From Halobacteriovoraceae bacterium (lineage in GTDB: Bacteria > Bdellovibrionota > Bacteriovoracia > Bacteriovoracales > Bacteriovoracaceae), in NCBI GenBank assembly GCA_963719505.1, contig CAVRCF010000001.1:1184001-1248000 (forward strand): 64,000 nucleotides of DNA, written 5' to 3'. The position numbers and the translations under genes are program-made. How positions within the stretch are numbered: the first letter of the stretch is position 1; the number at the start of each line of letters is the position of its first letter. Under the pieces are notes generated by a model that was not told the DNA's origin, searched no databases, and worked only from the letters and a program-made list of their open reading frames with translations. Shown in pieces: positions 1 through 9,453 of this stretch.

Positions 1-1125
1 CATTATGATGTATAATTCGTCTCGATGCTGCTTTTTTACGATTATCGAATCATGTACAGTCAGACAAGCGATCTCTTTACTATTTAGCACCTTTATACAC
101 TCTATCATGATGCTAGAATCTTCTTTCTGTAGTCTAGTTCCTTCTTGTCTGTAGAAGAACTCAGAAATGGCTTTATGCTTATCTTCAATCGCTGCAACAA
201 GAGCTACAACCTTCTTTCTAACCCTCTTTAGGTTAAATTCATCAAATCCTTCTTGAAGCTTATTAAAAATCGAATTCACAGCAACCCCGTAAGATTTAGA
301 ATTTAACATTATTAAAAGGGCTATTTTGATATCATCTCTCGAGAATCCATGGATGTTATAAATATCTTCAGGTCTTTTAACATCCTTTGCTAGATACAGA
401 AGGGTTGGGTGCAGAGCTTTAAAATCGATTTCTACCGTTGCTTCGTTGTCAAATGTGATCGTTTCTCTTTCGGATTTTGATAAATTCGTGCAGCTATTAT
501 AGATTCGGCCGCCTAAATTCAAATCGGAAGAACTATAGACAATGCTGAGTTCCAGAGAACATAAAGGCCTGAAGGCTGTATCAATGATAGTGTTGTTTAG
601 AAGCTCTACGTGTTTGCTCATTATCGAGTCTCGGTACTGGATCTCAGTTTTTTTATCAGCATCTATTTGGACTTGGACCTTAGTCTTTATACCTTTTTTG
701 GATTTGTCTTTTTCCTGAGCCCGGGCTCCTCTCCAAATCACCGTCCTAACTAACACCTTATCTATCTCATCCTTATTTTCAGCAAATATCTTTTCGAGTT
801 TCTGGGTACGCTTTATTCTTGTTGGTATCTTTTGCTTCTCACTTACTGAATGCATCACTAGAGTCACATAGGCATTATTATGAAGCCACTCTATAATAGG
901 CGATACTGTATACTGATTAAAACTTAATGTCCTGAATTTAGACACTCCAACCAATTCATGCTCGAGATAAAGATTGATTAAAGTTAAGTGAAGGAAATCG
1001 CGGTGCTTATGCCCTCTAAGCTTTTTACCTAAAGATTTGATGTATTCATCGTAAATCAAATCTGTAACTATCCCTGAAAAAGGCTTGATATAATCTCTGA
1101 ATTTCTTGTAATCAACTTGATACAT
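1..1125 (-). CDS. Family A polymerase-like protein (TV-Pol-like palm domain), C-terminus runs off the window
   Basis: Hand-translated open frame from ATG 1125 (GGAG RBS 6 nt upstream; in-frame ATG also at 1170) to position 1 with no stop. Motifs in order: LGGRIY, EIDFKALHP (motif A), R..IK (motif B), RLQKEDS, LTVHDSII (motif C). Absent from the ORF track because the stop is outside the window. Confidence 0.75.
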   Translation of the reverse strand, partial: MYQVDYKKFRDYIKPFSGIVTDLIYDEYIKSLGKKLRGHKHRDFLHLTLINLYLEHELVGVSKFRTLSFNQYTVSPIIEWLHNNAYVTLVMHSVSEKQKIPTRIKRTQKLEKIFAENKDEIDKVLVRTVIWRGARAQEKDKSKKGIKTKVQVQIDADKKTEIQYRDSIMSKHVELLNNTIIDTAFRPLCSLELSIVYSSSDLNLGGRIYNSCTNLSKSERETITFDNEATVEIDFKALHPTLLYLAKDVKRPEDIYNIHGFSRDDIKIALLIMLNSKSYGVAVNSIFNKLQEGFDEFNLKRVRKKVVALVAAIEDKHKAISEFFYRQEGTRLQKEDSSIMIECIKVLNSKEIACLTVHDSIIVKKQHRDELYIIM

Positions 1126-1155
1126 TATTCTCTCCATTTGAAGTTTCAAAAAATG

Positions 1156-1184
1156 TTGAAACTTGGCCATAGCTCCATTATACC
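1156..1184 (-). repeat. Copy 3 of island motif (GGTATAATGGAGCTATGGCCAAGTTTCAA), overlapping a sigma70-like promoter of the polymerase gene
   Basis: 14/14 identity (GAGCTATGGCCAAG) to the copy at 6505-6537; TCGAGA-17-TATAAT on the minus strand; overlaps a 9-bp inverted repeat at 1141-1164. Confidence 0.65.
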
Positions 1185-1237
1185 TTCGAAGATTTTTTCT
1201 CTCGATGCCCCATAAACATTGGTCTTCAGAGTCTTTT

Positions 1238-1250
1238 TAAGTGATTGATT
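1238..1250 (-). promoter_or_regulatory. IHF-like binding site
   Basis: Minus strand AATCAATCACTTA matches WATCAANNNNTTR exactly; lies in a divergent intergenic region of the island. Confidence 0.4.
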
Positions 1251-1413
1251 TCCCTTCCTTAAATTACAAAGTGTCAAATAGCTGAACAGCTTCACCATTC
1301 AAAGTGTTTAGTTTGAATACAAAGCCTTGAGCTCTGAGTTTTTGATTATTTTCGTCTCGAACTAAAAAGGTATATTTACAGAAACAGAGAAGAAAGAAAC
1401 AAAAGGAGTTCAG

Positions 1414-1905
1414 ATGAGGTTGATATGTATGATAATTTTATTTTTTGCTAGTTTAGAGGTTTTTTGCCAAAGCCATATTGTGAGGCAAGGTGAGAAACTT
1501 GAAAACATTGTTTCTGAGAGATCCGGGCTTAGTGGATATGATCTGATTCTTGAGGTAGGTAGAATTTCTGCTCTCAATGAGCTTGGCAACCCTCATCATA
1601 TTGAACCTGGCCAGATTATCTCGTTCGATCCTGAAGAAAAATCAAAGAGAACTATTAAAACGATCGTTAAAAAAGTCTATATCGTCACCCCAGAAAAACT
1701 AAACACCCTTTCAACTTCATTCGGTCTATCTCGAACCCAAGCTAACTGGAGGGTCGATGCAAATCAAAGAGATGTGAATATAAGTTATGAGTGGGAAACA
1801 AATGTTCGTCTTAATTACATACGTCATTTTAAAAATTCTGACTTCAATGCTGGAGGTTATATCGGAAACTCTGAATTTGGAGCATCTATCGGTTGGGATT
1901 TCTAA
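1414..1905 (+). CDS. Secreted LysM-domain protein with beta-strand C-terminus
   Basis: Signal peptide; HIVRQGEKLENI...LNELGNPHHIEPGQII LysM pattern; ends in IGWDF; AGGAG RBS. Confidence 0.65.
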   Translation: MRLICMIILFFASLEVFCQSHIVRQGEKLENIVSERSGLSGYDLILEVGRISALNELGNPHHIEPGQIISFDPEEKSKRTIKTIVKKVYIVTPEKLNTLSTSFGLSRTQANWRVDANQRDVNISYEWETNVRLNYIRHFKNSDFNAGGYIGNSEFGASIGWDF

Positions 1906-1970
1906 TAAAGGTATATTTTACTTGTGAATAATACACGCACAATGCCTGAGTAGGCAAAGAGAGGTTTTTT

Positions 1971-2636
1971 ATGTTTAAGTTATTGAAAAAGGGAATCAAG
2001 ATTATTGTTCTAACTGTCATCGCACTGATTTTAGGTTTTAAAATGTGCTCCGGTCCAGACAAAGAAGTTATTAAAAAAACACCACAACCAGAAGAATCAT
2101 TGTCTTTTAAGATTCCCAAAAGCTTGGTTGGTAAGCAAATTTATACATGCGATATTCAATCTTTGTACAATGTAGAAGTGACTGCTGAATGTGCATGTAC
2201 TCAAAGCGAGTGCAATTTCAAAGTTAAGCCTATCGATTTGTTTTGGAGTGCTGATTTAAAATTAAATATTGGAGATGGAAATACAATCTATCGCTCTTAC
2301 AAAAGAGATAGGGATTATTCAGGAAGTTGTACTGGATCTAGTTTTAGCGGGTGCGATAATTGGGAAAAAAGAAAAGAAGAAGTTATAGATAGTAAAGAAA
2401 CTATTCATAAACTAAAAGTTAATAGATGGATTGAAAGATATGCACAGAGAGAAAAAGAGAAAACCTGTGAAATTTCTGAGCAAATCAACGCTGAAGTGAC
2501 TACTGAATGTGCATGTACCAAAACAGAGTGTCTTGTCGGGATCACTCCAACGTATGATAAATGGGATGTAGAGCTCAAAATCAGTACCAAAGATAAAAAG
2601 CCCAAGTTCTACCGATTACATTCAAAAAGAAAATAA
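1971..2636 (+). CDS. Membrane-anchored Cys-rich protein with internal duplication
   Basis: N-terminal TM helix; TC.I....N.EVT.ECACT..EC repeated twice; GAGG RBS. Confidence 0.7.
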   Translation: MFKLLKKGIKIIVLTVIALILGFKMCSGPDKEVIKKTPQPEESLSFKIPKSLVGKQIYTCDIQSLYNVEVTAECACTQSECNFKVKPIDLFWSADLKLNIGDGNTIYRSYKRDRDYSGSCTGSSFSGCDNWEKRKEEVIDSKETIHKLKVNRWIERYAQREKEKTCEISEQINAEVTTECACTKTECLVGITPTYDKWDVELKISTKDKKPKFYRLHSKRK

Positions 2637-2697
2637 AGAGCACGTCTTAAATAAATTGTATTAGGCCCTACGGGGCTTAATTCCTTAAGGAGGAAAG

Positions 2698-3951
2698 ATG
2701 AAAAAAATATTTTTTTTACTATTAACAATATCTAGTTTGATCTCGTGTAGCAAAAAGGAAGACACGAAATTAGTTGATGCATTCGACATTCCACCAGTTA
2801 AGCAAACTAATAATACGCCTGTGAGTTCTAATGATTCAGTTCTAACGAGGTTCAATAGAGTTTATAATGACTCTCTACAAGCTTCTGATAGCGATTCTGA
2901 CCCACTTGTGTATTCATTGGTGACTAATGCCTCAAATGGAGTTGTTGTAATTACAGATAGCTCTTCAGGCTCTTATACATATACTCCCAATACTGGTCAT
3001 GTAGGAGCTGATAGTTTTGAGTTTAAAGTAAACGATGGAACAGAAGACTCTAACACTTCTCTTGTGAACATTGACGTTAAAAACCCCGAAACAATCTATG
3101 TCGGCACTAGCAATGGACTATCAATTTCTACTGATGGCGGTTTAACTTTTGTAAATAGACTGGAGACTTTAGATGTTAAAGATATTCAAATAACGGAGTC
3201 GGGCGATATCTATGTCGGAACAAACTTCGACATTTATATTTCTACTGATGGAGGTTCAACCTTTACTTCAAGATACTATGGTAGTGATGATTTCGTTAGT
3301 ATGTATATTGACAGCTCAGGCGCTATCTTTGTTGCGACAGACTGGGAACTGCTAAAGTCTACAAATAACGGACTGTCATTCAATTCTTTACTCTCTTCTT
3401 CATTGTTACAATCGGTAGATGGCGATGATTCAGGAAATATTTATGTTAGTTATGAGCTCTTTGGTTTTTCTATCTCTACTGATGGAGGAAGCAACTTTAC
3501 TAATTATTCAACAGCAAATGGACTTGGAAGTGATGATTTGTTTTCTTCTTTTGTAGATACTAACGGAACAATCTATGCATCAACCTTTAACGGTTTATCA
3601 ATTTCGACTGATGGAGGAAGTAACTTTACTAACTATACAACTGTAAATGGACTTGGAAGTGATGATTTGTTTTCTTCTTTTGTAGATACTAACGGAACAA
3701 TCTATGCATCAACCTTTAACGGTTTATCAATTTCGACTGATGGAGGAAGTAACTTTACTAACTATACAACTGTAAATGGACTTGGATCTAATCAAATAAC
3801 TTCAGTTTTTGCTGATGGCTTTGGTGGTGTTTACGTAGGAACTGTTAATAGTTTCAATATATCATTCGATAGTGGAGAGACTTTCATTAATTTAACAACA
3901 GCTGCCGGTTTAGCCGGTAATGGCGTCAGTGAATTAGTAGTAATAGAGTAG
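2698..3951 (+). CDS. Lipoprotein with cadherin/Ig-like domain and BNR/Asp-box beta-propeller repeats
   Basis: Lipobox LISC; DSDSDPLVYSL...YTYTPN..HVGADSFEFKVNDG Ig-like motif; repeated ISTDGG.xF Asp-boxes. Confidence 0.8.
   Translation: MKKIFFLLLTISSLISCSKKEDTKLVDAFDIPPVKQTNNTPVSSNDSVLTRFNRVYNDSLQASDSDSDPLVYSLVTNASNGVVVITDSSSGSYTYTPNTGHVGADSFEFKVNDGTEDSNTSLVNIDVKNPETIYVGTSNGLSISTDGGLTFVNRLETLDVKDIQITESGDIYVGTNFDIYISTDGGSTFTSRYYGSDDFVSMYIDSSGAIFVATDWELLKSTNNGLSFNSLLSSSLLQSVDGDDSGNIYVSYELFGFSISTDGGSNFTNYSTANGLGSDDLFSSFVDTNGTIYASTFNGLSISTDGGSNFTNYTTVNGLGSDDLFSSFVDTNGTIYASTFNGLSISTDGGSNFTNYTTVNGLGSNQITSVFADGFGGVYVGTVNSFNISFDSGETFINLTTAAGLAGNGVSELVVIE
3516..3786 (+). repeat. Exact 129-bp (43-aa) in-frame tandem duplication, 2.1 copies
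   Basis: Unit starting AAATGGACTTGGA at 3516, 3645 and partially 3774; nucleotide-identical. Confidence 0.95.
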
Positions 3952-3974
3952 AAGTGTAAATTTCCAGATTTGAT

Positions 3975-4175
3975 CTATCTTATGACTTGAACTGGAACCG
4001 CATATCTCTCATTATTCGATATCTGGGATTCAACAGTCCCAGATATATTAACATGACTGTAATCAATTACTTTTTCTATTCTTGAATACATAATCACATT
4101 AATGATTAAAATAAATAAAAGTAGGACGTTTGATCGTTCTGTCCAGATTTGTTGTACAATTTTGTTATCTTTCAT
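3975..4175 (-). CDS. Small single-TM hypothetical protein
   Basis: 66 aa, hydrophobic VLLLFILIINVIMY, GGGAG RBS. Confidence 0.55.
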   Translation of the reverse strand: MKDNKIVQQIWTERSNVLLLFILIINVIMYSRIEKVIDYSHVNISGTVESQISNNERYAVPVQVIR

Positions 4176-4341
4176 TTTTAACTCCCATTACTCACTAATT
4201 TTAACATGAATTCTCTTATTCAGAGTGAGACTTTGTCTTAATTTATATTAAGCCTCAAGTCGTTAATCCAATATCTTCATATTAAGATGAAATTAATCCC
4301 GTTTTATTGTATAGTATCTATATCAAGTACTAAAGGAACTT

Positions 4342-5010
4342 ATGAAACTCGTTTTCATTTCGGACACTCATTCTAAACATCGTGAGCTAGGCAAGCTTGC
4401 TGGAGACATCCTTATTCACTCGGGTGACTTCACCACGAAGGGAGAACTAGAACAAGTTATAGACTTCGTTGATTATCTCTCCAGTTTAGAATTTAAAAAC
4501 ATCATAGTCATCTCCGGTAATCATGATTTCTGCATGGAATCAAATAGCGATATTAGAGAAGAGTGTGAAAAGATATTTAAAGATGCGGGAATAATATATC
4601 TCAATGATAGTGGAGTTACGATAGAAGGCCTTAAGTTTTTTGGATCTCCAGTATCTCCGCATTTTGCAGGATGGGGGTTCGAAAAGACTCGCGGTACTGA
4701 TATTAAGAAGCATTGGGATTTAATACCAGCTGATACTGATATTCTAATAACTCATGGTCCAGCGTTCGGTCTTTTAGACAGAACTCTCGACGGAACAAAC
4801 GTAGGCTGTGAGGACCTCAGAGAGCGTATTCACGAAATTAAGCCCTTAATCCATGGTTGCGGCCATATACATGAAGCATACGGCGAATTGGAGTCTGAGG
4901 GGACATTGTTTATAAACGCTTCTTCCTTAGATATTTTTTATCGCTGTATAAATGATCCAATCGTCGTTGATCTTAAAAAAGACAAGGACGGAAAATACTC
5001 ATACAGATAG
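4342..5010 (+). CDS. Calcineurin-like metallophosphoesterase (MPPED/239FB-like)
   Basis: ISDTH, HSGDFT, SGNHD, ITHGP, CGHIHE motifs. Confidence 0.9.
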   Translation: MKLVFISDTHSKHRELGKLAGDILIHSGDFTTKGELEQVIDFVDYLSSLEFKNIIVISGNHDFCMESNSDIREECEKIFKDAGIIYLNDSGVTIEGLKFFGSPVSPHFAGWGFEKTRGTDIKKHWDLIPADTDILITHGPAFGLLDRTLDGTNVGCEDLRERIHEIKPLIHGCGHIHEAYGELESEGTLFINASSLDIFYRCINDPIVVDLKKDKDGKYSYR

Positions 5011-5051
5011 TAACGACTAGCAAAGAAATAGATTTAACAACTCTGATAGGA

Positions 5052-5285
5052 ATGACTGTCACGGTGAGTGATGAACATGAAAAGTTAACCACTGACGAGA
5101 AAACTGAAATCGTAATACTTTTAAGGGAAATTGGTCATATGTATGACTTTGCTGAAGAGGGGACCGAAATAGTTACCAAGATCTATGAAGATATTTACTT
5201 CTCTTATATTAAAATATCTCAAAACTCTGATATTTCCAAAGGTGAACTAAATATGCTAATTTCTAAGCTTGCTTCAGTTAAGTAG
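5052..5285 (+). CDS. Hypothetical protein
   Basis: 77-aa ORF, co-oriented downstream of the phosphoesterase. Confidence 0.5.
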   Translation: MTVTVSDEHEKLTTDEKTEIVILLREIGHMYDFAEEGTEIVTKIYEDIYFSYIKISQNSDISKGELNMLISKLASVK

Positions 5286-5305
5286 TTCCACTAAACTTGA
5301 GCAAC

Positions 5306-5701
5306 CTATTTATCTTCACTAGATATAGTCTGAATCTTATCGATATTCATTAATAATATAAGCTCTATATTAAAGCTCTGATGTACAAGGCAACGGAACT
5401 CCTCAAATGAATCTGAGTGTTTGATGGCAAAATCAATAAGTGTCTGATTATCTGGTCTTTTGAGACATGTATTGATGGTTAATCCGTCAGACTTAATGAT
5501 ATGTAAAATCCCTCGCATAAATTTAGGGAAATAACCTTCTCCACAGTATTCCAATACAAGTTTGTATTCATCGGTATTCAGAACATCTGCAATCGCTTCC
5601 CTGGATAGGGAAGTGTAAAAATTCAAAATATTTGAGATGTCTAAAGCTTTATTGTAAGCCTGGTTATTGTAAAAAAGCTCACCTTGATCATATAGTTTCA
5701 T
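5306..5701 (-). CDS. Hypothetical protein, paralog of 5688-6086
   Basis: Start reassigned to ATG 5701 (GGAGG RBS); aligns by eye with its neighbour (LNFY, G...II..DG, SF..FR). Confidence 0.7.
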   Translation of the reverse strand: MKLYDQGELFYNNQAYNKALDISNILNFYTSLSREAIADVLNTDEYKLVLEYCGEGYFPKFMRGILHIIKSDGLTINTCLKRPDNQTLIDFAIKHSDSFEEFRCLVHQSFNIELILLMNIDKIQTISSEDK

Positions 5702-6086
5702 GACTCTTATCCTCCGAATTTTTTGTAATAAATGTTTTAAGTACATCTACAAAAGCAAAAGCTAACAGAACTCGGAATGATGCAAAGGACTTAGAATTTT
5801 TCGCACAGTAATCCACAATCATATCTTTTGTTTTGTTAGACAAAGTCGTTTCTGTCTTAGCTCCGTCATCTGTAATGATTGTTATTAGCCCTTTGTAGTG
5901 AATTATCTGGAAGTGACCATACATTTCAAGTAACTCCTCTCCAACTGATTTATTCAATTCATCTACTATTGTTTCGTTTGTTGTAGGGATTGGCATATAG
6001 AAATTGAGGACTATAACTTTATCTGCCGCAGCGGATATGTTTCCGTTGTCATAATCTTCCTTTGCTTGATTATACAATATTTGCAT
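5688..6086 (-). CDS. Hypothetical protein, paralog of 5306-5701
   Basis: Start reassigned to ATG 6086 (AAGGA RBS); overlaps next gene start, suggesting coupling. Confidence 0.7.
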   Translation of the reverse strand: MQILYNQAKEDYDNGNISAAADKVIVLNFYMPIPTTNETIVDELNKSVGEELLEMYGHFQIIHYKGLITIITDDGAKTETTLSNKTKDMIVDYCAKNSKSFASFRVLLAFAFVDVLKTFITKNSEDKSHETI

Positions 6087-6345
6087 CAGCTTTTTCCTTG
6101 TTATATTGTGTGCAAAATTCACTTTACAATATAGATTGTAACACACTGCGCTGGAGTTTGCAACGCTTCTTGTCAGATTTATAGTTTTCAACCTCCAAAA
6201 ATTCAAAAAACCTCATAAAATTACTAAATACCTAAATTTATCCTCATAAAACTCATCAAAATCTCTAAATACCCTAATAAAGATATTTCAAACTCTCTTG
6301 ATGCCTTGCTGTAGGAGCTCTCAGTCTATCTGGTTTTTTTCTGTG

Positions 6346-6537
6346 CGGTATAATTAGAGCTATGGGCAAGATTTGAAGAATTTCTTCAGAGTTCTGAAAG
6401 TCTGTATTGGATTACTAATGCTGATCTCAATCATTGGAAGAGATCAAAAGGCCAAGGATGGTCAATATCCAATCAAAAACTCAAAGCAAACTAGCAATTT
6501 AGTCCGGCATTGTTAGAGCTATGGCCAAGATTTGAAG
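6346..6537 (+). repeat. Two 33-bp direct repeats (6346-6378, 6505-6537; 29/33 identical, period 159)
   Basis: CGGTATAATTAGAGCTATGGGCAAGATTTGAAG versus CGGCATTGTTAGAGCTATGGCCAAGATTTGAAG. Confidence 0.9.
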
Positions 6538-6609
6538 GTTTTATAAGTCCCTAAAAACCCACTTTATTGACACTTTAATGAGTAAAATCTATTATTTAGG
6601 CAACTTTAG

Positions 6610-6634
6610 GGTTCGAATCCTGCTGGTTGCGCCA
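6610..6634 (+). other. Duplicated tRNA 3' end (attR-type site), probably tRNA-Arg
   Basis: GGTTCGAATCCTGCTGGTTGCGCCA = T-loop, 3' T-stem, acceptor strand, discriminator G, CCA; the upstream sequence does not form the 5' half of a tRNA. Confidence 0.85.
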
Positions 6635-6894
6635 TTTATCTTATAACTTCTCCAAAATGACCGATTTACCCATTATGACACGCTAAAGTTGTGTAGATAA
6701 AAACAATGTTCGTCGCGTTATATCCTACCAAATGTTAAATACTATAGTTTTAAATCTTGATAGGATACTCAATCGGTAAGGCATAAAAATTATCCTTGCT
6801 AGGTAAGTTTTGATACCCTTTAACGGTGTAGGACTAAAAATGATAAAATCTAACGAGTTAAGGACTTAATCATTTTTAGAAAAACAGGGACGTA

Positions 6895-9453
6895 ATGCAA
6901 AAAAGAATTTTAGCACTTCTTACATTCATAGCTGTCATGACCACTTCATGTGGAGATCTTTTCATGACGGACAAAAATAAAAGCTCACTTGGAAGTAATA
7001 TATTAGGAGCGAATTGTGCTTTTGATTCAAAGGCTTTCTCAAGAATTTTAGAAGAAAATATAAAAGGCGATATTCTTTGCCTTGAAGAAAAAATAGATAT
7101 GTTTATCAAGTTCGTTAGAACAGATAGGCCAGGCTTTGTTTCTAAGAAGACCTTATTAGAAGTTCTCGACACAGATATTGTTGATCTAGGGGATGAAGAT
7201 ATCACTCCTTTAATTGACTCAATTTTTGATTTAAGTTTTGTCATTTTTGGAGGTGACAATGGTTACATATCAGAAGGTGATGTCGATAAAATATTTGATC
7301 TCATGATCTACTTCAATGAAAAAATTTACCTTAATGTTTATAAGTACTTTGTAAATGAGGATCAAGTCAACTTCGAGAGACATGAGTATGCAAGAAACCA
7401 AGTCTATAATGGGATGGCCCTTATTTCTGATCGACTTAAGACACTGACTGACGGTGGCTCTTTGTCGAGGTTAGATACGATAAACTCTGAAGAATTTTTA
7501 CAGAACTTCTTTGGAGAAGATGAAGATCGTCTCTCTAAAGTTAAATCTTTTATGTTCTTAAAGAAAGTTTTTCTCGGTGGTGAAAAGTACTCACTAACAA
7601 ACAGAGAGATGCTCGACGCTATAGAGAAGCTTCCTGAGTTAACGCTTGTTGCGCTAGACTTGAGCCAAGCGACCAATTTCATTTTTAAAGATGATCTTCG
7701 TCAAATGCTTATGGTTTATAATAACGATGCAAAATTAGTTAGAAACAATCTTTTCTATGATCAAAATAGTACTCAGAAACTTTTTTCATTGTATGATCTT
7801 TTTGATTCTATAGAAAAAATTCTTCCTGAATTTGGTAACCCCGATGAGCAATTGCCAGATGTAGATTATGCCTTTCACTTGAGAAAGTATCCTCTAGAAA
7901 TTGTTGAAATAAAAAGAATACTCATGGGAAATACGACAGGGTCGGGGAACTTTAGTACTCAAGATATCTCAAAGCTTTTAACTCACGCTGAAAATGTTTT
8001 TGATGAGTCTGAATTCTTCTTCAAAATGTATGATTTTTATAAAGCTGACCTCAATTCATCAAGACCTGTATCAAGAGACTTTAGTGAATTCCCAACCAAT
8101 AGCGAAAGAGAGAGAGTCTATAGAGATCACTTTGCAAGCATCGCTTACAATTACAAATATTTTAAAGGAAATCGAAAAGCTCCCGTTTTTGGACACGAAT
8201 ATAAGAGAAATGCTTCAGGTCTTGTAGAGATTAGAGCGCTTGAATATCTTGTTACTGAAATTATGAAGACCTATGGTAAACAAGACGATGCTGCTCGTGG
8301 TGGCTATCATATGGAACTCATTCCGCATGTTAAGCCTCTAATTGATAATTTAAAACGACTGCTTCGCGACATTGGTCTGACTAAAGTTGGAAGAAGTTAC
8401 AAAAGAGATAGAGATGGAAATATTCTACCTTTCCCTGAAGGTGGCTTTGCACCAGAAGTAACAAGTACAGCTGAAAACCTTGTTCTAATGTCGACTTTGT
8501 TTCAAAACCAATCTGACGGATGTGACAGTAAGAATAATGGACCTTGTATGGAGGTTCCAGAAATAACAGAGTTTTTTGTAGGTGTGTTAACGGCCCTCAG
8601 TGTAAAAGAGTCTTTCAATAAGCTAATGCACGAAGAATGTGGCAACGATGTTGACGAATTTGGAAGATTTCATGTGAGATGTTTTAGAGAGAAATTTATT
8701 ACGGTTCTGAATAAACCTTACGATAATGAAGGAAATAAACTCTCTGATTCTATGCCTCTTTTATATTCATTTACTCAGGAGCTAACAGATAGTCTTCCAG
8801 ACGGTGCGAGTCCAACTGAGTCTACAAGTTACTTAAAGTTTATTAATGAAACAGATGCCTTCACACGGACTTGTAATTTTACTAAAGATGAAGATGGACA
8901 ACAGATCGATATTCCAATGACTGAAGATGATGCCTTTGGATTTTTTGCTGGCCTATTAAATGTTGAATCAACTCTTTTGAGATTCGATGTGAATGAGAAT
9001 AATAAAATGGATGATGGTTGTGATGATCGAATCTTAAGAAAATATAGAATCTGTAAGAAGACCTCATCAGAGGTGAATGAAGTTAATAATGCTTATTATG
9101 AAGTCTACGAAAGTGCGATTCAGGGCTTAGTTGCTCCAAATGGTGGATTCATGACAAAGCTGTCAAAATCAATTTTTCAATACCTTATAAAGTATGGAAA
9201 GGTTCCTGACACATCTAATTTTGGAAGTCTTTGGGCTTACGCTAAATTCCTTGTACGAATTAATAAGAAGGCTGATGCAAGTAGAACAACAATTGCAACC
9301 GTTTTGAAAACTCTTGGTGAAGAGTCCGCAAATGCGAAAGACTATCCTTTCAAGTGTGAAGAGTGCGTTGTTGGTGATCCATCTATCAAGTGTGAACCAG
9401 ATGATGGTGTTTCTTGGGATTATGACTGGAATAGCCAAGATATTTCTCTTTAA
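6895..9453 (+). CDS. Large hypothetical lipoprotein
   Basis: 852-aa ORF, lipobox-like TTSC. Confidence 0.8.
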   Translation: MQKRILALLTFIAVMTTSCGDLFMTDKNKSSLGSNILGANCAFDSKAFSRILEENIKGDILCLEEKIDMFIKFVRTDRPGFVSKKTLLEVLDTDIVDLGDEDITPLIDSIFDLSFVIFGGDNGYISEGDVDKIFDLMIYFNEKIYLNVYKYFVNEDQVNFERHEYARNQVYNGMALISDRLKTLTDGGSLSRLDTINSEEFLQNFFGEDEDRLSKVKSFMFLKKVFLGGEKYSLTNREMLDAIEKLPELTLVALDLSQATNFIFKDDLRQMLMVYNNDAKLVRNNLFYDQNSTQKLFSLYDLFDSIEKILPEFGNPDEQLPDVDYAFHLRKYPLEIVEIKRILMGNTTGSGNFSTQDISKLLTHAENVFDESEFFFKMYDFYKADLNSSRPVSRDFSEFPTNSERERVYRDHFASIAYNYKYFKGNRKAPVFGHEYKRNASGLVEIRALEYLVTEIMKTYGKQDDAARGGYHMELIPHVKPLIDNLKRLLRDIGLTKVGRSYKRDRDGNILPFPEGGFAPEVTSTAENLVLMSTLFQNQSDGCDSKNNGPCMEVPEITEFFVGVLTALSVKESFNKLMHEECGNDVDEFGRFHVRCFREKFITVLNKPYDNEGNKLSDSMPLLYSFTQELTDSLPDGASPTESTSYLKFINETDAFTRTCNFTKDEDGQQIDIPMTEDDAFGFFAGLLNVESTLLRFDVNENNKMDDGCDDRILRKYRICKKTSSEVNEVNNAYYEVYESAIQGLVAPNGGFMTKLSKSIFQYLIKYGKVPDTSNFGSLWAYAKFLVRINKKADASRTTIATVLKTLGEESANAKDYPFKCEECVVGDPSIKCEPDDGVSWDYDWNSQDISL

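Follow-up and report, generated by a model that had tools for sequence, protein, structure and literature searches.

A repeated motif in a tRNA-Arg island

The left end of the 64,000-nucleotide stretch of Halobacteriovoraceae bacterium DNA analysed here (contig CAVRCF010000001.1, positions 1,184,001 to 1,248,000, or G000:C1:1184001-1248000; hereafter the window) lies within a 22.7 kb island integrated at a tRNA-Arg gene. The genome assembly (G000) is 3.69 Mb in five contigs and is 83.5% complete. The island extends from attL, with an intact tRNA-Arg(tct), to attR, 22.7 kb downstream, and an attR proposed at this position in a preliminary description of the DNA is borne out by an exact 28 bp repeat of the 3′ end of that tRNA. 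A 413-aa tyrosine integrase is encoded by a gene (int) beginning 97 nt after attL, and the island is flanked by rsgA on the left and by a gene for an 852-aa protein of no known family on the right. A motif of about 33 bp, GAGCTATGGSCAAG(A)TTTSAA, is present in three copies in the 3.69 Mb genome, all of them inside this island. Copy A forms the promoter and first codons of a gene for a small DNA polymerase, and the other two copies, B and C, are repeats at the far end of the island. The motif is composite, with a sigma-type head followed by a separate 22 bp downstream part that may serve as an operator.

Positions refer to the window and are negative where they precede it; some are given in locus coordinates (L005), in which L005 15514-15790 corresponds to window -1986 to -1710 and to G000:C1:1182014-1182290.

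1-1170, running 57 nt past the left edge of the window, minus strand: polymerase gene, with candidate starts at ATG 1170 (leaderless, 408 aa) and at ATG 1125 (GGAGA before it, 393 aa)
1184-1155, minus strand: copy A, GGTATAAT-g-GAGCTATGGCCAAG-TTTCAAC
1184-1155, minus strand: parts of copy A, namely GG 1184-1183, TATAAT 1182-1177, discriminator GGAGCT 1176-1171, ATG 1170-1168, then GCC AAG TTT CAA C
6346-6378, plus strand: copy B, cGGTATAAT-ta-GAGCTATGGGCAAGATTTGAAG; GGTATAAT at 6347-6354, ATG at 6362, stop after four codons
6505-6537, plus strand: copy C, cGGCATTGT-ta-GAGCTATGGCCAAGATTTGAAG; degenerate -10 (GGCATTGT), then TTAGAGCTATGGCCAAGATTTGAAG; 159 bp after B
6610-6637, plus strand: attR, 28 bp exact direct repeat of the tRNA-Arg(tct) 3′ end

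The letters and coordinates of the motif in the preliminary description (1156-1184 on the minus strand, 6346-6378 and 6505-6537 on the plus strand) are confirmed, and several features of its arrangement are apparent. First, all copies are non-coding or at a gene start. Second, as had been described, they face outward and bracket the cargo, which amounts to eight open reading frames (ORFs), with A inverted relative to B and C and 5.2 kb from B. Third, B and C lie in the 440 bp non-coding right end of the island in the same orientation, and both point at attR, again as described. Finally, the copies are dispersed rather than arranged in a tandem array.

Scanning the 64 kb window for the pattern with up to three mismatches gives three matches where 0.02 are expected, and none of 100 shuffles gave three. 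The 14-mer core is present in the whole genome in two exact copies and in six when permitting a single mismatch, and matching flanks are found only in the three island copies. B and C are identical at 24 of 25 positions over TTAGAGCTATGGSCAAGATTTGAAG (25 bp, 96%, E 6e-5 in a self-comparison of the island), the edges of the conserved block are sharp at 33 bp, and the flanks of the two copies are unrelated. The exact 14-mer common with copy A is weaker on its own: it has an E value of 2.6 in the self-comparison, where by our count of rows seven other exact 14-mers are repeated at the same value, and when the 200 nt preceding the polymerase gene are shuffled, an exact word of equal length arises in 15 of 200 trials. 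A hidden Markov model (HMM) built from B and C only identifies A as the best other site genome-wide (rank third; E 1.2, 11.8 bits), the next being C1:280485 (E 2), and by our arithmetic about 0.007 chance matches as good as A are expected within 22.7 kb. A and B also both have GGTATAAT, at the same offset to within 1 nt. We take the three-way relationship to be real. The core search and the HMM agree with the earlier suggestion that the motif is confined to the island. Readings of the motif as a sigma-54 site or as a sequence with dyad symmetry were dropped on visual inspection of the letters.

The motif head and the leaderless start of the polymerase gene

The head of the motif, GGTATAAT, belongs to a promoter class of the island with the sequence AAAGGTATAWT. 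GGTATA[AT] is found at 13 sites in the island, nine of which form a family with the consensus AAAGGTATATT, and AAGGTATA has eight occurrences against 0.9 expected. The longer pattern A[AG]GGTATA[AT]T has 50 sites in the genome, seven of them in the island, which represents 0.6% of the genome and would be expected to hold 0.3. Each of these seven precedes an ORF of at least 60 codons that starts 24–53 nt downstream, as compared with 15 of 43 sites outside the island; the genes concerned encode the 228-aa, HNH, 164-aa, sigma-like, polymerase (site = copy A), 163-aa and 221-aa proteins. The remaining two of the nine family sites are at -7477, followed by what by eye are small ORFs, and copy B. 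No -35 sequence conserved across the class was found.

-9455, -7625, -7477, -7144, -494, 1178, 1369, 1910 and 6347: promoter-class sites
1366-1376, plus strand: island-type promoter AAAGGTATATT before the 163-aa gene, without the 22 bp part of the motif
1907-1917, plus strand: island-type promoter AAAGGTATATT before the 221-aa gene, without the 22 bp part of the motif
1200-1205, minus strand: -35-like TCGAGA, 17 nt upstream of the copy A TATAAT; 10 of 12 matches
6567-6595, plus strand: TTGACA-17-TATTAT, the best sigma-70-like match of the region; 11 of 12 matches; faces attR and ends 14 nt before it

The sigma-70-type elements differ among the copies: A has TCGAGA-17-TATAAT, B has TATAAT without a -35, and C has CATTGT. 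A scan for sigma-70-like promoters gave 22 sites overall where 25.4 are expected, and TCGAGA-17-TATAAT is thus a consensus match only. The better match, TTGACA-17-TATTAT, begins 30 bp after copy C.

A candidate for a factor reading the promoter class is encoded 484 bp downstream of the polymerase gene, by a 184-aa gene (L005 16405-16959, minus strand) that has an island-type promoter of its own. The product is probably a small sigma-70-family factor, judging from matches to Sigma70_r2 (E 0.021) and to an NCBIfam sigma-70 model (E 0.0024), both below the cut-off, from its 30 nearest Atlas clusters, 20 of which belong to the Sigma70_r2 set (score 0.96), and from a C-terminus that we read as region-4-like. 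A search of 5.8 billion proteins found no relatives beyond a 99% identical copy, PDB sequence searches with this protein and with a 90-aa product whose ORF overlaps the int stop codon and is coupled to int returned nothing meaningful, and a single-sequence fold of the 184-aa protein was uninformative (predicted local distance difference test score, pLDDT, 36.5). This factor would presumably read the AAAGGTATAWT class.

The spacing in copy A corresponds to that of a class of host genes. Among 3197 ORFs of at least 120 codons, each taken from its first ATG, 92 have a -10-like hexamer starting at -12, compared with 14–46 at every other offset between -50 and -6; this excess, of about 60 host genes with the geometry TATAAT-6 nt-ATG, indicates that the genome has a class of leaderless genes in which TATAAT ends 6 nt before the ATG. 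The polymerase ORF starting at ATG 1170 is one of the 92, and this ATG is in frame with the gene. Starting there, the N-terminus also has the length of that in the closest full-length relative, residue 55 aligning with residue 52, and both this start and ATG 1125 may be used. In B and C 7 nt separate the -10 position from the ATG, and a stop ends the frame after four codons (ATG GSC AAG ATT TGA).

The polymerase is a TV-Pol-like family-A enzyme

The preliminary description assigned the gene next to copy A to a polymerase, and structural comparison supports this. The protein has no sequence match in Pfam, NCBIfam or PDB, and phrog_4756 (function unknown) is its sole match (E 4.5e-44), although its family is very large and unannotated, with 4656 representatives at E up to 0.001. 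The AlphaFold model (mean pLDDT 83.9) has strands at 194-197 and 205-209 and is helical over residues 2-135. Its top Foldseek matches are solely family-A (Pol I-type) DNA polymerases, at E values of about 1e-4, and an exhaustive VIA search returns Pol I, Pol nu, the T7 DNA and RNA polymerases and mitochondrial RNA polymerases, with Z 12.4–14.2 over 212–235 residues. T7 RNA polymerase matches as well as Pol I does (Z 13.2, root-mean-square deviation 3.1, 235 residues). Residues 2-135 resemble MarR-type winged-helix domains (VIA Z 5.5–6.6 over about 100 residues), with weak profile matches to MarR and RPC6. In an alignment of 50 sequences G206, R207, R220, E232, D234, Y256, K267 and H358 are invariant, D254, R263 and D359 are conserved in at least 90%, and S360 is nearly invariant.

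These features are those of the TV-Pols, a family of minimal superfamily-A polymerases defined by Iyer, Abhiman and Aravind in 2008 (PMC2579912), who predicted them to be primase-polymerases and noted a subset that has an N-terminal helical domain and lies beside lambda-type integrases. The TV-Pol beta-hairpin and its arginine are matched by the invariant G206 and R207 and by the modelled strands at 194-197 and 205-209; the two catalytic aspartates of the RRM-like palm correspond to D234 and D359, in the part that aligns with Pol I and T7 RNA polymerase at Z 12–14; and the fingers aspartate and RxxxK motif correspond to D254, R263 and K267. At 393–408 aa the protein is minimal, the fold matches cover polymerase domains only, leaving no nuclease domain, and it has the N-terminal helical domain and an integrase of the lambda type in the same integrating element. 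As in SCCmec, there is an iteron array downstream of the gene cluster. The island differs from TV-Pol systems in that no D5/Cch-type helicase or small OB-fold partner is recognised in it. By its family features and fold, the protein can be described as a TV-Pol-like member of family A, minimal in size and with an N-terminal domain that resembles a winged helix.

Homologues of the catalytic half are present in 110 phage records (89 Vibrio, 9 Aeromonas and 5 Shewanella), several of them with two places, and all 15 among the matches listed are annotated as hypothetical. Within the order, a polymerase homologue was found in three of 201 genomes, and within the phylum in 10 of 401 (G000 included in each), with at most about 31% identity among the phylum relatives (tblastn). 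No close relatives were found in metagenome or viral contigs.

An iteron array downstream of the polymerase cluster

In the intergenic region downstream of the cluster of polymerase, sigma-like and 174-aa genes, seven direct copies of AAAAGCGACCACC are present at L005 15514-15790, the first three at a 29 bp period (Tandem Repeats Finder score 151), together with one inverted GGTGGTC. Iteron origins have three or more tandem direct repeats, an arrangement shown by the seven AAAAGCGACCACC copies and not by the 33 bp motif. The one characterised TV-Pol, CCPol-MP of SCCmec (PMC7581432), is a primase-polymerase that uses deoxynucleoside triphosphates (dNTPs) and needs single-stranded DNA, and it starts preferentially at iterons of the origin downstream of its operon. 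The island iteron words ACCACC(A/T)(A/T)TAAAT loosely resemble the SCCmec origin repeat TACCACTTAAT given in that paper, a resemblance that is a lead only. The AAAAGCGACCACC array is a candidate replication origin, or a candidate transfer locus for the FtsK-like protein of the island, and is more likely than the 33 bp motif to be the cognate site of the polymerase. DnaA boxes are limited to three scattered matches in the island.

Searches for the motif in other genomes

Matches to the motif are found in viral contigs (15 in IMG/VR), genome contigs (at least 120 in 119 loci of GTDB, one genome per species) and JGI metagenomes (10), and many of these are ordinary ATG-GCC-AAG gene starts. TATAAT does not occur within 3 nt upstream in any of the 15 viral matches, the 120 genome matches listed or the 10 metagenome matches, and we treat them as chance. 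The pattern GGTATAAT-N1-2-GAGCTATGG with up to two mismatches matched 100 of the 201 genomes of the same family (G000 included), a reversed-pattern control gave by eye a similar result, and matches without mismatch are restricted to G000. At the nine two-mismatch and eight one-mismatch places inspected the rest of the motif is missing, and in none of the 200 other genomes was the motif found together with a TATAAT context. The nine related-genome loci inspected for a reading of the motif as a 5′ fragment of a class II tRNA contained no tRNA, and that reading was dropped.

Eight distantly related TV-Pol loci were used for comparison, and in at least four of them, by our reading, the gene lies directly behind coding sequence. 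The island promoter class was not found at these loci, nor were comparable iteron arrays. With the best 20-mer window, no upstream word beat shuffles at any of the eight, a test that lacks power, having failed on the island itself (17 of 20 against a shuffle maximum of 18); the longest exact word did not beat shuffles at seven of the eight, and the 15-mer at the other (L159) was reached by four of 200 shuffles. A promoter-linked repeated motif of TV-Pol elements is not described in the TV-Pol literature found (PMC2579912 and the consulted portion of PMC7581432, supplements aside).

Inverted repeats and RNA folding

The preliminary description had noted palindromes into which copies run, and these do exist at A and B; a common structure at the motif does not follow from them.

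1141-1164, minus strand: inverted repeat AAGTTTCAA-N6-TTGAAACTT, 9 bp stem, overlapping the 3′ end of copy A
6374-6388, plus strand: palindrome TGAAGAA-T-TTCTTCA, 7 bp stem, beginning in the last bases of copy B

A 6 bp stem is present near copy C. Inverted repeats beginning in a 12 nt window have a background of 1.8% for 7 bp and 5.6% for 6 bp stems, and the palindromes observed are commoner than this. Relative to the motif, each of the three stems begins in a register of its own, and they therefore define no common structure. RNA folds of the three copies are no better than those of shuffles (z -1.26, -0.61 and +1.36), and there is no match to Rfam at E up to 1 in window 1-7000.

A proposed role in promoter regulation

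We tentatively propose, giving it somewhat less than an even chance, that the motif is a promoter/start module carrying a predicted operator, which couples expression of the polymerase to outward transcription towards attR and, after excision, into int. Copy A consists of a -10 box (AAGGTATAAT), a 6 nt discriminator, the start site and the first codons of the polymerase gene, and B and C are replicas of it. The 22 bp from about -5 to +17 would be the binding site of an island-encoded DNA-binding protein seated on the transcription start, and this protein would set polymerase expression (at A) jointly with outward transcription (at B, and at C, 30 bp ahead of the predicted strong outward promoter). 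While the island is integrated, this transcription would run into the flanking chromosome; once it is excised, transcription would pass across attP and into the integrase gene, whose own promoter-like sequence is poor by our reading. The winged-helix-like N-terminal domain of the polymerase would be the first candidate for the binder, and the product of the 90-aa ORF coupled to int the second. Plasmid Rep proteins, which are autoregulatory, offer a parallel for a polymerase binding its own promoter. From the sequence we infer the promoter activity, the transcription start, the protein binding and the regulatory logic of this proposal.

Repressor operators usually span the transcription start, and the 22 bp part, which begins 1–2 nt after the -10, spans the expected start and so has their position. 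Three of the eight head positions of C are changed relative to B, as compared with one of 25 in the rest (one-sided hypergeometric p of about 0.04, post hoc and by our own arithmetic), and this uneven decay implies that the downstream part has been kept independently of promoter function. Together with the sharp edges and the common outward orientation, it suggests that the 22–25 bp downstream part has been kept for its own sake; its action would be at the DNA level, because C may lack transcription from its own start. The preliminary description had offered three options for the motif (a promoter or priming site read by the element's own polymerase, an operator for an element regulator, or a recombination arm site), and the operator fits best because the 22 bp part spans the start from 1–2 nt after the -10 and is kept in C despite the decayed -10. 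What stands of that interpretation is the polymerase, the confinement to the island and the regulatory link, whereas a site read by the polymerase is not supported, in view of the sigma-70-type head, the leaderless geometry, the behaviour of CCPol-MP and the separate iteron array.

Several known systems are similar in part. Like the self-regulated lambda PRM-cI, a leaderless promoter with operators over it, copy A has its TATAAT spaced for transcription to begin at the A of the ATG, and a conserved site covers this predicted start, with further copies elsewhere in the element, although its site is not palindromic, the product is a polymerase rather than a repressor, and binding is only predicted. 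As with Pcirc of ICEclc and the junction promoters of insertion sequence (IS) circles, outward promoters by which the integrase is expressed solely from the circular form, promoter-like sites (B and 6567-6595) lie opposite int and point across the attachment site; unlike in those systems, the module facing outward is a copy of the replication gene's promoter, and here the promoters are predicted from sequence. As with the sites of P2 Cox and 186 Apl, which act both as excisionases and as regulators, one sequence recurs in an arm of attP and at an early or replication gene promoter; the Cox and Apl sites are arrays of short direct repeats, in contrast to the single 22–25 bp sites here, and no Cox-like protein is recognised in the island. 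On this proposal the motif would be a promoter/operator module of a kind known for integrative elements, inside a TV-Pol island with several unstudied features.

Alternative explanations

The polymerase itself could recognise the motif as its cognate initiation site, the winged-helix domain docking on it and a primer or transcript proceeding leftwards from A and rightwards from B and C. One copy adjoins the polymerase gene and two are near the end of the element, the enzyme has a family-A, T7 RNA polymerase-like fold with a DNA-binding-like N-terminal domain, and, like the motif at about 33 bp, the promoters of single-subunit RNA polymerases are asymmetric. The motif is similar to T7-type promoters also in being an asymmetric block of about 20–30 bp over the start, adjoining the gene of a polymerase of the same fold superfamily, and the prediction that TV-Pols are primase-polymerases (PMC2579912), with T7 RNA polymerase scoring as well as Pol I in the fold comparison, is in keeping with such a role. 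Yet the head is a sigma-70-type -10 common to island promoters that have no 22 bp part, the TATAAT-6-ATG geometry is that of the host's leaderless genes, CCPol-MP initiates at origin iterons and depends on dNTPs and single-stranded DNA (PMC7581432), and the island has its own seven-copy iteron array downstream of the polymerase cluster. A T7-like system would have the same block of about 18–23 bp before each unit, whereas only one of the three motif copies precedes a gene and the seven class sites carry only AAAGGTATAWT, an 11 bp sigma-type block; the island enzyme (393–408 aa) also lacks the extra domains of T7 RNA polymerase. We consider this explanation decidedly unlikely, and its stronger form, in which the TV-Pol-like enzyme is a promoter-specific family-A primase or transcriptase whose winged helix recognises the 33 bp module and which starts synthesis on double-stranded DNA, a shade less likely still. 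Were the stronger form true, the enzyme would represent an extant link between DNA polymerases of the Pol I type and RNA polymerases of the T7 type, served by cis sites of its own next to its gene and at the element end, and any reading of the motif by the polymerase would bear on the origin of promoter-specific RNA polymerases from DNA polymerases; the evidence leans against it. Recombination offers another explanation, which we regard as unlikely: the copies could be attP arm sites for the integrase or an excision factor, with the third site regulating the polymerase promoter, or crossover sites at which the 204-aa recombinase inverts the 5.2 kb cargo. In the right arm, B precedes the attachment core by 253 bp and C by 94 bp, both in one orientation, their 159 bp separation is about 15 helical turns, and the island codes for the 413-aa integrase and for a 204-aa Phage_integrase-family protein, which we take to be of FimB/E size. 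The cargo lies between A and the inversely oriented B and C, and an invertible segment requires such an inverted arrangement; asymmetric crossover sites are known from shufflons. Integrase arm sites would be expected in both attP arms, whereas B and C are on one arm and there is no copy in the 97 bp between core and int or elsewhere at the left end. The motif has no dyad symmetry and no flanking target duplication, arm-type sites are usually about 10 bp and thus shorter than the motif block, and the gene for the small recombinase is about 11 kb away.

An element acting as RNA is another possibility. Transcripts from A and B would share the 5′ end AUGGSCAAG..., to which a factor or the ribosome would bind, and the B RNA, with its four-codon ORF, could mimic or decoy the leaderless polymerase mRNA. 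Relative to the -10 box the copies are all oriented alike, each retains the ATG, which in A occupies a leaderless position, and some inverted repeat follows each copy. We think this very doubtful, as C, lacking a good -10, may give no transcript from a start of its own, the predicted folding does not surpass that of shuffles, the hairpin registers differ, and Rfam gave no match in the region searched. A more prosaic possibility is that the motif has no function beyond copy A, with B and C as decaying duplicates of a fragment of the polymerase promoter whose similarity is historical. C has lost its -10, neither B nor C opens a gene, the motif is unique to this island and not conserved elsewhere, and repeated exact 14-mers at E 2.6 are not rare within it. 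Against this, the block has sharp 33 bp edges and B and C are identical at 24 of 25 positions without residual similarity in their flanks, the decay is uneven between the -10 part of C and the rest, and the placement is non-random, both copies being non-coding and att-proximal, in the same orientation and facing outward; we view mere duplication as improbable. Three copies could nevertheless have arisen simply because a promoter fragment was duplicated, which counts against the promoter/operator module, and other observations weigh against it as well. A differs from B and C in its last third (a 1 nt deletion and a G to C change), 14–20 bp are common to all three, and the statistical support for A alone is moderate. 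The 22 bp part has the position of an operator and lacks the dyad symmetry of most dimeric operators. No recognisable repressor gene is present among the island ORFs scanned, and the winged-helix similarity of the polymerase is modest, below the Z of 8 at which VIA reports "possibly a common arrangement". Finally, none of the collections searched yielded a related element that carries the motif.

If the promoter/operator module is nonetheless correct, the island would tie its replication enzyme to transcription that is directed outward and enters the integrase gene only after excision, a simple circuit for choosing between integration and replication in TV-Pol elements, whose control is unstudied. 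The island promoter class, the probable sigma factor, the leaderless polymerase start and the iteron array together would provide a workable model for the expression and replication of a TV-Pol element.

Other features of the island

Other products of the island include the HNH protein, an 884-aa FtsK/SpoIIIE-Mrr-HTH protein, a small M48/M78-like peptidase and a phosphoesterase similar to a phage "DNA transfer protein". Between copies A and B are genes for surface or secreted proteins and a metallophosphoesterase. A 22,652 bp contig exists that codes for proteins 97–99% identical to those of the island.

At the right flank, the 852-aa protein has orthologues in three genomes of the same genus, and in one of the three (G500) a different tRNA, tRNA-Val (L172 1113-1188), is located directly upstream, a few bases after its 3′ end resembling those after attR. 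This neighbour fits a tRNA hot spot, without demonstrating an empty site.

Further repeats are present within the island. A 27 bp inverted repeat (26 of 27 identical, E 4e-6 in the self-comparison) is located at window 2377-2403 and L005 7863-7889 (G000:C1:1174363-1174389), in the coding regions of the 221-aa and 228-aa proteins, both of which have the peptide EVIDSK. The gene of a 417-aa cadherin/BNR-repeat protein contains a near-perfect 129 bp tandem duplication (window 3478-3780). AT-rich segments with repeated CCTCAT(A/C/T) and CTAAAT words are found at the right end (window 6190-6290) and downstream of the polymerase gene (L005 17334-17400), the latter including two copies of a 24 bp period at L005 17334-17381 (Tandem Repeats Finder). 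Lastly, an ORF on the minus strand at L005 4602-5237 codes for a 211-aa AbiEi-like protein (weak Pfam match), and two shorter ORFs are present on the other strand (L005 5494-5802 and 5899-6192, plus); by our reading of the translations, these look like pieces of a related gene.

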